Origin: a virus
Lineage: Duplodnaviria; Heunggongvirae; Uroviricota; Caudoviricetes
Direction: 5' to 3' (one strand)
Virus record (IMG/VR): IMGVR_UViG_641522623_000003
Span: 1 to 11,078 of that record
DNA: 11,078 nucleotides
The notes under the pieces were generated by a model. The model made no database searches, was not told where the DNA came from, and saw nothing but the letters and a program-made list of their open reading frames with translations. Shown in pieces: positions 5,097 through 8,354 of the stretch (the first letter of the stretch is position 1; each line of letters begins with the position of its first letter). The translations under genes and the position numbers were made by a program.

Positions 5097-5506
5097 GCGT
5101 AATTCACTCTCAGGCACTGCGTGAAGCGGCAGAGCAGGCAATGCATGACAACTGGGGATTTGACGCGGACCTTTTCCATGAGCTGGTAACACCATCGATT
5201 GTGCTGACACTGCTGGATGAACGGGAAAGAAACCAGCAGTACATCAAACGCCGCGACCAGGAGAACGAGGATATTGCGCTAACGGTGAGGAAACTGCGTG
5301 TTGAGCTGGAGACAGCAAAAATCAAAACTCAACGAGCAGCGTGAGTAGAAGGTGTTATCTCGGATGGAAGTAAGCGTATTGCTGAACTGGAGGCCTGGGT
5401 TGAATACACAAGAGCTGCATACGTAAGAGCAAAAGACAAGGGAGATTTGATCAGAGTTATTACCCGACAACCAACGGGATTTTACGCTTACGTACCATGT
5501 AATTAG
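5093..5506 (+). pseudogene. ea22-like gene, interrupted by in-frame TGA and shortened
   Basis: GTG start 5093 overlaps the upstream stop. 83 codons (MSVIHSQALREAAEQAMHDNWGFDADLF…) run to TGA 5342..5344. The same frame then stays open for 53 more codons (VEGVISDGSKRIAELEAWVEYTRAAYVRAKDKGDL…) to TAG 5504..5506, with no in-frame start. Confidence 0.45.
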
Positions 5507-5590: not shown

Positions 5591-6094
5591 TTACTGATAG
5601 TGTTTTATGTTCAGATAATGCCCGATGACCTTGTCATGCAGCTCCACCGATTTTGAGAACGACAGCGACTTCCGTCCCAGCCTTGCCAGATGTTGTCTCA
5701 GATTCAGATTATGTCGCTCAATGCGCTGAGTGTAACGCTTGCTGATAACGTGCAGCTTTCCCTTCAGGCGTGATTCATACAGCGGCCAGCCATCCGTCAT
5801 CCATACCACGACCTCAAAGGCCGACAGCAGGCTCAGAAGACGCTCCAGTGTGGCCAGAGTGCGTTCACCGAAAACGTGCGCCACAACTGTCCTCCGTATC
5901 CTGTCATACGCGTAAAACAGCCAGCGCTGACGTGATTTAGCACCGACGTAGCCCCACTGTTCGTCCATTTCCGCGCAGACGATGACGTCACTGCCCGGCT
6001 GTATGCGCGAGGTTACCGACTGCGGCCTGAGTTTTTTAAATGGCGGAAAATCGTGTTGAGGCCAACGCCCATAATGCGGGCGGTTGCCCGGCAT
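5591..6094 (-). CDS. insB: IS1 InsB (full 167-aa insB frame)
   Basis: 167-aa [19 protein letters not shown]…[10 protein letters not shown]6C frameshift motif present (plus-strand GAGTTTTTTAAA, ~6029..6040). Confidence 0.9.
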
Positions 6095-6288
6095 CCAACG
6101 CCATTCATGGCCATATCAATGATTTTCTGGTGCGTACCGGGTTGAGAAGCGGTGTAAGTGAACTGCAGTTGCCATGTTTTACGGCAGTGAGAGCAGAGAT
6201 AGCGCTGATGTCCGGCAGTGCTTTTGCCGTTACGCACCACCCCGTCAGTAGCTGAACAGGAGGGACAGCTGATAGAAACAGAAGCCAC
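6013..6288 (-). CDS. insA: IS1 InsA
   Basis: 91-aa ORF, 2 aa different from copy A (…[19 protein letters not shown]). Confidence 0.9.
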
Positions 6289-6400: not shown

Positions 6401-7015
6401 ATGAAAAAATCAATACTAATTTTAGGGCTTACGTTAATTGTCTCATCTCAAATACCATCGGCAATGGCAAAAAATGAATCAAGACTTTGGGTTGTTGTTG
6501 ATCGAACGGAAAGACATACCTGCCCTTCAAGTAAATGTGGAGTGGCTGGGAAACTATTTTTCAGGGAAGGCGTAGATTTTCTAGAAAAAAAAGGTGAATG
6601 GGTTCGTATAACTGAGCCATATTCAGCCTCATGTGTGGGAGGGGAAAGCGAATATATTAAAGAAGGTAATAAATCCTGCACAAGAAAAAACGGAATCGTC
6701 AATGGCAAGTTTTCAGAATGGGTTAAACTTAGTGATCTTAGCAGTGAAAGGCCATCAGATCCTGCTGAAAATGCGAGCGGAGATGATACTTTAATCAAAG
6801 GATCTGATGACTACCGTATATACAAAAAAGAGTTTTCTTCGGCAGCTAGGAAGTTAATAAACGAAGGGGTCTGCACGGAAAGCGACTTTAAGGAAATCGG
6901 AGGGTGGATGGCATCAAGCAATAAGGGGAAAAACATCTATTTCACATATTGCGGAGGAATGACGTTGTCGAACAGAATATACCTAGACGTTAAAAGTGGA
7001 AAGACTTTTAGATAA
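6401..7015 (+). CDS. Secreted (Sec signal peptide) Cys-containing hypothetical protein, accessory cargo
   Basis: 204-aa ORF with RBS AAGGA 8 nt upstream. N-terminus MKKSILILGLTLIVSSQIPSAMA↓KNE is a typical signal peptide with AxA cleavage site and no lipobox. Mature part has 6 Cys. The gene is visibly AT-rich versus the flanking lambda genes. No family recognised by eye. Confidence 0.7.
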   Translation: MKKSILILGLTLIVSSQIPSAMAKNESRLWVVVDRTERHTCPSSKCGVAGKLFFREGVDFLEKKGEWVRITEPYSASCVGGESEYIKEGNKSCTRKNGIVNGKFSEWVKLSDLSSERPSDPAENASGDDTLIKGSDDYRIYKKEFSSAARKLINEGVCTESDFKEIGGWMASSNKGKNIYFTYCGGMTLSNRIYLDVKSGKTFR

Positions 7016-7120: not shown

Positions 7121-7308
7121 ATTCGCCATATTTTATGAAGCAAATACGACACTATAGATAATTAAGCGTTGCTGGTTGTCGATTCCTCACTCACTCCTGT
7201 TGATGGCTCTCTTCTTGTATGTGCCATTGAAGGGTAATATCGAGTAAAAAGATACCGGAAGTATCCGCGCCGCCATGATTGTCTTTCTCCTAATGCAGGA
7301 AAAGCAGA

Positions 7309-7428
7309 ATGGCTAAATCATCAGCAGAGCGCAAAGTCGATCAGAGAGCCAAGCAAGCATCATCCGGTATGCGTAAGCTGGAGCTTGTACTTGATGCTCA
7401 GGAAATTGAAATGCTGGATCGTAACTGA
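7309..7428 (+). CDS. Small hypothetical ORF (39 aa) whose frame continues past its TGA stop
   Basis: ATG 7309 with AGGAAA 10 nt upstream. Translation MAKSSAERKVDQRAKQASSGMRKLELVLDAQEIEMLDRN, stop TGA 7426..7428. The same frame continues 72 codons to TAA 7645..7647 (ATRRFRHAPYEFGEYIALLSRQDDARVRWRIKSISRKRCGKCGERVPVNSCPCNGDSQCWVTKGWHETKLMI) with no ATG. Confidence 0.35.
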   Translation: MAKSSAERKVDQRAKQASSGMRKLELVLDAQEIEMLDRN

Positions 7429-7675
7429 GCCACGCGCCGCTTCAGGCATGCGCCTTACGAGTTTGGTGAGTACATCGCGTTACTGAGCCGCCAGGATGAT
7501 GCACGTGTGCGCTGGCGTATAAAATCGATCAGCAGAAAACGTTGCGGTAAGTGCGGCGAGAGAGTTCCTGTTAATTCATGCCCGTGTAATGGTGACTCAC
7601 AATGCTGGGTGACCAAAGGCTGGCACGAAACAAAATTAATGATATAAATCTCTGTGACATGTCACGGAGGCGGCA

Positions 7676-8104
7676 ATGAAATTAGACCAGCAATATCTAA
7701 AAGATCTACTTATCGCATTCGAAAAAACTCATGGCCCTGACACGATGCTTAGTGAACTAGAGGATAATGGCTTTAATAGATATGACCAAAATTTTATTTT
7801 CCATATGCGATTATTATGCGACTACGAATTAATAGTCAGGGTTGATGGAAAACCTGGGTTCGGTCATATAATGTCCAACGAGTTAGGGGAAGGTGTTGGA
7901 TATAGTTGGATCGAAGTACCACTGAGGTTGACAGCAAGAGGGCATGATTTTATTGCTGACTTGCGTCAAAAGGAGGTCTGGCAAACTATAAAAACAAACT
8001 TTAAGGATGAGGGAATTAGTACACTAATAAGTGTTTCAAAATCACTAGCAAAAGGCTTTGCAAGGAAAAAGATAAAAGATATTACAGGAATAGATATTGA
8101 ATAA
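7676..8104 (+). CDS. DUF2513-like hypothetical protein (putative winged-helix), accessory cargo at the lambda ea8.5 position
   Basis: 142-aa ORF with strong RBS GGAGG (7666..7670) 5 nt before the ATG. AT-rich codon usage. The motif …RLTARGHDFIADLRQKEVWQTIK… and a basic C-terminal tail resemble my memory of DUF2513 proteins (…LTWxGHEFLDAIRD…VW…). Confidence 0.65.
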   Translation: MKLDQQYLKDLLIAFEKTHGPDTMLSELEDNGFNRYDQNFIFHMRLLCDYELIVRVDGKPGFGHIMSNELGEGVGYSWIEVPLRLTARGHDFIADLRQKEVWQTIKTNFKDEGISTLISVSKSLAKGFARKKIKDITGIDIE

Positions 8105-8186: not shown

Positions 8187-8354
8187 ATGCACTTCCGAGT
8201 CACAGGTGAATGGAATGGAGAACCATTCAACAGAGTTATCGAAGCAGAGAACATCAATGACTGCTATGACCACTGGATGATATGGGCGCAGATAGCACAT
8301 GCAGACATAACCAATATTCGAATTGAAGAACTGAAAGAACACCAAGCCGCCTGA
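8187..8354 (+). CDS. Small lambda-like ORF upstream of xis (orf55-like)
   Basis: 55-aa ORF MHFRVTGEWNGEPFNRVIEAENINDCYDHWMIWAQIAHADITNIRIEELKEHQAA with RBS GGAGA 7 nt upstream. Length and position match the small ORF lambda carries between ea8.5 and xis. Confidence 0.55.
   Translation: MHFRVTGEWNGEPFNRVIEAENINDCYDHWMIWAQIAHADITNIRIEELKEHQAA

Follow-up and report, generated by a model that had tools for sequence, protein, structure and literature searches.

The open frame at positions 7309-7647 (+) of the 11,078-nucleotide stretch of viral DNA analyzed here (the window) is very probably a nonsense pseudogene, a 112-codon frame of the phrog_536 / epsilon15 gp49-like type that is cut at codon 40. 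This designation is based on the stop itself, the intact homologues, the distribution of the TGA allele, and the damage found downstream of the stop on TGA alleles. Since the TGA interrupts a frame of ~112 codons, the window copy is regarded as a pseudogene of the phrog_536 family and not as a functional member of it. The original prediction, which was made from the sequence alone, had listed a ~112-aa gene inactivated by a nonsense mutation as the first of its alternatives, and consistent with this the homologues keep the frame open past that point and share its end at 112 aa.

The window matches E. coli ATCC 8739 (NZ_CP022959.1) at 100% identity and represents the left arm of a lambdoid prophage beside ybhC, with bet, exo and further genes up to xis and int. 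The RefSeq/PGAP annotation has a pseudogene with precisely the coordinates 7309-7647 ("hypothetical protein", internal stop), so the broken gene is real but already on record, and with the break flagged there the overall importance of the finding is small. No literature on the gene was found under the topics of epsilon15 gp49 and of ATCC 8739 prophage pseudogenes.

Layout of the frame at 7309-7647

Re-reading of the sequence bore out the coordinates that had been given for the frame. The ATG is at 7309-7311 and, as predicted, is preceded by a plausible ribosome-binding site, a Shine-Dalgarno-like AGGA at 7297-7300 (+) with an 8-nt spacer to the ATG, which is also present in the 97%-identical intact allele of fEC.1. 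The 39 codons that are still translatable (7309-7425, +) encode MAKSSAERKVDQRAKQASSGMRKLELVLDAQEIEMLDRN and correspond to a basic helix at the N-terminus, the beta-strand segment of the RHH domain and the greater part of RHH helix A, after which the frame reaches the premature TGA at 7426-7428 (+). Past the stop, the same frame does stay open for 72 further codons, encoding ATRRFRHAPYEFGEYIALLSRQDDARVRWRIKSISRKRCGKCGERVPVNSCPCNGDSQCWVTKGWHETKLMI, up to the TAA at 7645-7647. These codons (41-112; 7429-7644, +) are colinear with the intact homologues and were assigned as an untranslated remnant comprising RHH helix B and the C-terminal Cys-rich module. The prediction that this segment has no ATG start of its own also held, as the sole Met past the stop is codon 111, which leaves no usable start.

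The Cys-rich string that had drawn attention to the segment, CGKCGERVPVNSCPCNGDSQC, was found to be codons 79-99 (7543-7605, +), a module that includes C79, C82, C91, C93 and C99 and is presumed to form a four-Cys metal site. Codon 47 (7447-7449, +) is CAT (His) in the window, whereas it is Arg in ≥90% of close homologues. In the same frame, a mechanical list of open reading frames contains a GTG-started 46-aa sub-ORF (codons 67-112; 7507-7647, +), and nothing was found in the analysis pointing to its use.

The length of the downstream open frame is in itself only suggestive, since runs of ≥72 open codons follow a stop in ~2.4% of the intervals between stops when the window sequence is shuffled, and in 4.8% of those in the real window. 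Homology was therefore needed to decide on the nature of the frame, and does decide it.

Codon 40 in the homologues

A database search with the repaired protein identified 299 homologues, nearly all of them 112 aa in length, in Escherichia, Salmonella, Citrobacter, Klebsiella, Enterobacter, Raoultella and Edwardsiella hosts. It had been suggested that homologues might have a sense codon, for example TGG, at the position of the TGA; a sense codon is indeed found there, but it is TGT (Cys) and not the TGG that had been guessed. In DNA alignments the window TGA aligns with TGT in fEC.1 and strain 2/0, and in Chlobot, phiV10 and epsilon15 the translated copies have Cys at codon 40; all five copies are uninterrupted over 112 codons. 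Cys40 is invariant in the alignment of close homologues from several genera (39/39) and is present in 41/61 diverse relatives. The alignment of the homologues indicates that the TGA is the derived state and that one T>A substitution at 7428 produced it from TGT (Cys40). When the 30-mer of the window haplotype was restored to TGT it had no match in the complete E. coli genomes, and as such the immediate ancestor of the allele was not recovered.

Between intact alleles from different hosts (relative to epsilon15), dN/dS was 0.08-0.26 for codons 1-39 and 0.11-0.13 for codons 41-112. These ratios indicate that both halves of the gene are under purifying selection between intact alleles, and the values of 0.11-0.13 for the second half argue that the downstream frame is genuine coding sequence in the family. 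The proposal of a 39-aa protein followed by a non-coding open frame is disfavored, as no homologue was found to end at codon 39 with an unrelated downstream sequence; every 39-aa database entry that was examined at the DNA level was the same TGA allele.

The exact alignment of the TGA with a conserved Cys codon is what is classically seen for a Sec/Cys pair and would fit with recoding, in which the TGA is decoded as selenocysteine by SelB and tRNA-Sec. In E. coli, however, Sec insertion requires a SECIS hairpin just 3' of the UGA, as established for fdhF. For the 60 nt past the window TGA the minimum free energy was -14.6 kcal/mol versus a shuffle mean of -17.0 kcal/mol (z=+0.84), nothing but a 4-bp hairpin persisted as a structural element downstream, and a permissive Rfam scan returned nothing relevant. 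Furthermore, the TGA alleles are 97-100% identical to TGT alleles, and the second stops and the C99Y change on TGA alleles, described below, are incompatible with a translated selenoprotein. Selenocysteine insertion is thus extremely improbable, and the Cys-to-TGA change need not be pursued as a selenoprotein or recoding site.

In the deposit of phage Chlobot (PP925838.1, region 1061-1539), the intact 112-codon gene is left unannotated. In its place are an out-of-frame CDS for a "UmuD-like protein" (1061-1378) and a 46-aa "transcriptional regulator" CDS (1399-1539), the latter of which is the GTG sub-ORF, despite the full 112-codon frame being intact. This annotation is probably a gene-calling error in the deposit.

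Predicted architecture of the parent protein

The repaired translation (codon 40 = Cys) matched phrog_536 "transcriptional regulator" (E=6.7e-49, residues 1-111, profile 2-114/115), a label that is an annotation and not a tested function. The repaired protein had no match in Pfam at E≤1, including to any RHH model, and none in PADLOC; in the PDB there was no phmmer match and a profile search gave noise only (E>2). The sole NCBIfam match was sub-threshold (YbfE, 14 bits versus a cutoff of 62). A second PHROG family, phrog_34005 (40 positions, unknown function), matched only the N-terminal 40 residues of the repaired protein (E=2e-28), and it appears to have been built from truncated or mis-called N-terminal fragments of phrog_536 and not to be a separate family.

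The fold was modeled twice. The first AlphaFold model was derived from a shallow alignment of 39 sequences, all ≥67% identical, and had a pLDDT of 60, so that a Foldseek-PDB search with it was meaningless. The second AF2 model was of a homologue that is 94% identical, with 178 representative clusters added down to ~25% identity, and had a pLDDT of 88. In this second model there are helices at residues 5-19, 30-43, 52-74 and 100-108, an extended segment at residues 20-29 and a Cys-rich loop at residues 75-99, and the order of beta-strand, helix and helix is that of the RHH superfamily. Conservation follows the Cys-rich loop closely: C79 and C82 are present in 61/61 diverse relatives and C99 in 60/61, with a fourth Cys within positions 90-93. 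The suggestion that the segment is a zinc ribbon was broadly right, with four conserved Cys (CxxC...C...C), although in the AF2 model, which does not include metals, residues 75-99 are a Cys-rich loop with no beta-strands and not a classical beta ribbon.

Based on the predicted fold together with conservation, the parent protein is predicted with good confidence to consist of a basic N-terminal helix, an RHH domain (residues ~20-74) and a four-Cys module (residues 79-99). The four-Cys module probably binds zinc, and the parent is predicted to be a small DNA-binding regulator. The RHH and four-Cys prediction provides a structural rationale for the phrog_536 label and a function that can be tested in the intact homologues.

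Distribution of the TGA allele

An exact 30-mer around the TGA was identified in 33 complete E. coli genomes, among them two separate ATCC 8739 assemblies and five NCTC strains, and the origins of these genomes include chickens, cattle, pigs, an opossum, a goose, humans and old NCTC strains. The idea that the TGA is private to the ATCC 8739 laboratory lineage was ruled out by these matches. A second TGA haplotype, which reads MTKSAAERKADQ...ERN and then a stop and differs at 9/339 positions, was found by looking up the 39-aa product in a large protein collection and is present in 29 more complete genomes; a group of gene copies at 97.3% identity corresponds to this second haplotype and is not intact. 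Strain PK6 also carries the TGA together with an extra R43H, and it was because of this change that it was missed by the 30-mer search. Overall, the TGA allele is present in at least 63 of the 5,426 complete E. coli genomes, on two haplotypes and only on alleles that are 97-100% identical to the window. The TGT 30-mer was found in 315 complete E. coli genomes and ≥80% of the gene in 526, and the TGA allele makes up ~12% of the gene copies in this set. The 39-aa product has been called on >1,700 contigs. An assembly or sequencing error in the record has a practically negligible probability, given that the 33 genomes with the same allele were assembled independently, by many laboratories and on many platforms, and that the same TGA recurs on the second haplotype in the 29 others.

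The prophage module that carries the TGA was found at no fewer than four chromosomal sites (ybhC, next to mdtA, torI/dsdC and the sbmC-sbcB region) in different phage backgrounds. Among 50,697 phage records there were 56 with a match to the gene, none of which had the TGA allele, the best match being the intact copy of Chlobot (93.8%). The allele is, however, present in NZ_CP174001.1 (43,337 bp, circular), deposited as "plasmid" pOHT76-1_1 of E. coli SZQ1, which is a nearly complete lambdoid phage genome with terminase, portal, capsid, tail, int/xis, Red, O/P, Q and lysis genes. Next to its int is part of a gene for a diguanylate cyclase. This molecule is probably an excised or replicating prophage that was assembled as a circle. 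Since a near-complete phage genome carries the TGA allele, the gene seems to be dispensable, and the wide spread of the TGA likewise implies that it is dispensable for prophage persistence and apparently also for the excised circular phage genome.

Changes downstream of the stop

Other genomes with the exact window haplotype showed no further mutations except two independent stops at W69: TGG>TGA in FDAARGOS_1248 and strain 200112, and TGG>TAG in SCPM-O-B-12142. W69 is at window positions 7513-7515 and is the third codon of the 46-aa sub-ORF at 7507-7647. Outside the TGA background, no W69 stop was found elsewhere among the 136 genomes sharing the native 30-mer at that site. The second TGA haplotype has G80R and C99Y, the latter at a position that is Cys in all but one of the 61 diverse relatives, and other TGA copies have R43H, A48S and R66H, with R66 being invariant and R43 nearly invariant among close homologues. 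In the window allele R47H is the only conspicuous downstream change and there is no frameshift. All four of the singleton mutations that were seen are G>A. Together these changes indicate that constraint downstream of the stop is relaxed on TGA alleles, although with only ~8 independent post-TGA mutations this is not statistically proven. The database protein P0010 (112 aa, 8 member sequences) combines an intact Cys40 with R80 and Y99, and it looks like a recombinant in which a good N-terminal half was rejoined to a decayed C-terminal half.

Stop-codon readthrough, which had been raised as a second explanation for the long frame, fares poorly in view of these changes. In its programmed form it was rejected, as no homologue other than the closely related TGA alleles has the stop, and on those alleles the extension is accumulating damage. 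A different case is that of a leaky stop, in which near-cognate readthrough of the UGA (likely by Trp) would give some full-length protein and the allele would be a hypomorph and not a null. UGA is the leakiest (least efficient) stop codon in E. coli, so that a trace of full-length protein may be made. The allele persists at appreciable frequency, and in the window haplotype the frame past the stop has stayed open and the C-terminal module retains all four of its Cys, which would fit with some residual product. Basal readthrough is typically <1%, though, and no stimulatory structure was found downstream of the TGA. In addition, Trp at codon 40 would probably be damaging, as this position is invariantly Cys in the close homologues, and the tolerance of second stops at W69 and of the loss of C99 implies that there is no selection on a readthrough product. 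We consider a leaky stop with a useful full-length product to be very unlikely.

It is also conceivable that the break created new small products, with the 39-aa peptide, the 46-aa Cys-rich ORF (7507-7647) or both being functional and the split being maintained. The 39-codon ORF and its ribosome-binding site were undisrupted in 21/21 TGA copies examined at the DNA level, and the two W69 stops in the 46-aa ORF might point to a tail that is expressed and under negative selection. Yet neither piece shows independent conservation, and the 46-aa frame itself has acquired stops and C99Y. Half of an RHH domain without helix B is, judging from the fold, not expected to fold or dimerize, and the AGGA at 7493-7496 sits 10 nt before the GTG at 7507, a longer spacing than is usual for a ribosome-binding site. 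The W69 pair was, moreover, noticed post hoc at a Trp codon that offers two G>A routes to a stop. Maintenance of such products is accordingly rated as highly unlikely.

The high frequency of the TGA allele might in principle be due to some benefit and not to neutral hitch-hiking, and selection in lysogens is entertained here because the allele accounts for the noted ~12% of copies and occupies several integration sites. Selection might have acted in either of two ways. In the first, a full-length RHH-Cys4 regulator would be costly to the host or the prophage, and readthrough of the UGA or initiation at GTG 7507 would still produce the Cys-rich tail in amounts on which counter-selection could act, and such selection would explain the two independent W69 stops. 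In the second, the 39-aa basic peptide would be a new small regulator or a dominant-negative fragment. That the allele is kept by selection, whether against the tail or for the peptide, appears very unlikely. The W69 double stop itself is most likely due to chance, since a Trp codon can become a stop by two G>A routes, all of the singletons are G>A and the observation was made post hoc. Nonsense inactivation followed by decay remains the preferred reading of the downstream changes.

Neighboring genes

A remnant of a UmuD/HumD-like S24 peptidase gene is located at window positions 7169-7234 (+) and runs out of frame into 7309-7486. It has an in-frame TAA after "IEG", and RefSeq lists it as a pseudogene, a partial "DNA repair protein". 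Strains 13C1065T, PK6 and 97.3 have a longer version of the remnant (246 nt). With this remnant beside it, the broken regulator gene adjoins another decayed gene. An IS1 element (transposase with a programmed frameshift; 5591-6288, -) lies downstream of an ead/Ea22-like gene (5141-5392, +) that is frameshifted and C-terminally truncated, and the related prophages of strains A14 and CE0007a have the same truncated ead/Ea22 remnant without the IS1.

The genes that travel with the pseudogene encode a 204-aa protein with an N-terminal signal-like sequence (6401-7015, +), a DUF2513 protein (7676-8104, +) and a 55-aa protein (8187-8354, +), for none of which was there an NCBIfam or PADLOC match. They were intact in nearly all copies that were inspected, and the DUF2513 gene is frameshifted in PK6. 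The intact gene of epsilon15-like phages, and of some prophages, is either the last gene before the genome-end terminator or is two genes upstream of the small terminase subunit, a placement that differs from the position of the window gene near xis/int. The gene moves between phage types as an independent unit.

Proposed history of the allele

We propose that the ancestor was an accessory gene, encoding 112 aa and conserved among lambdoid and epsilon15-like (Uetakevirus) phages, in which a single T>A would have converted Cys codon 40 from TGT to TGA. Translation from the ATG at 7309 would since then stop after 39 residues, inside RHH helix A. The resulting 39-aa peptide should be non-functional as the original protein, as it would be without helix B, which the core of the RHH dimer requires, and without the Cys module, and on the basis of the model it could not do the original job. 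The 72-codon downstream frame would be the remainder of the gene that has not yet eroded, and the mutation would be old enough to have been spread by prophage recombination into the genomes in which it is now found, at least 63 of 5,426. The locus is a small natural case of an accessory phage gene decaying after a first hit.

Comparison with known systems

The window resembles bacterial selenoprotein genes of the E. coli fdhF type in having an in-frame TGA where homologues have Cys, but it differs from them in that it has no SECIS-like hairpin and in that the downstream frame decays on TGA alleles. The closest intact counterparts are the alleles of fEC.1 (WP_001129736.1) and phage Chlobot, which have 97% DNA identity to the window across the gene and differ from it by TGT in place of TGA at codon 40 and by nine other substitutions. 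Their flanks are those of the window: the 204-aa hypothetical gene, the UmuD-like remnant, the gene itself, the DUF2513 gene, xis and int. More distant are epsilon15 gp49 (NP_848257) and phiV10 p55 (AAZ95941), with 71-86% amino acid identity to the window gene over 112 positions; they share the length and Cys pattern of the window family, and both genes are intact where the window has its TGA at codon 40.

At the level of the predicted fold, the parent family was compared with the RHH proteins MazE7 (6a6x), TacA1 (7zg6), ParD2 (7b22), the RHH domain of PutA (2rbf) and the Arc repressor (1arq). The matches to RHH antitoxins suggested a toxin-antitoxin system, but this reading was set aside because the downstream neighbor is not constant and PADLOC gave no match: the gene is followed by DUF2513 in the window, by a hypothetical gene and then terminase in strain 2/0, and by the genome end in epsilon15 and phiV10. 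Unlike the toxin-paired RHH proteins, the parent gene thus has no consistently adjacent toxin partner, and its neighbors vary by phage type. Sequence identity of the parent family to the compared RHH proteins is only 5-21%, and beyond their fold the family has a basic helix at the N-terminus and a four-Cys module at the C-terminus, both of which are absent from those proteins.
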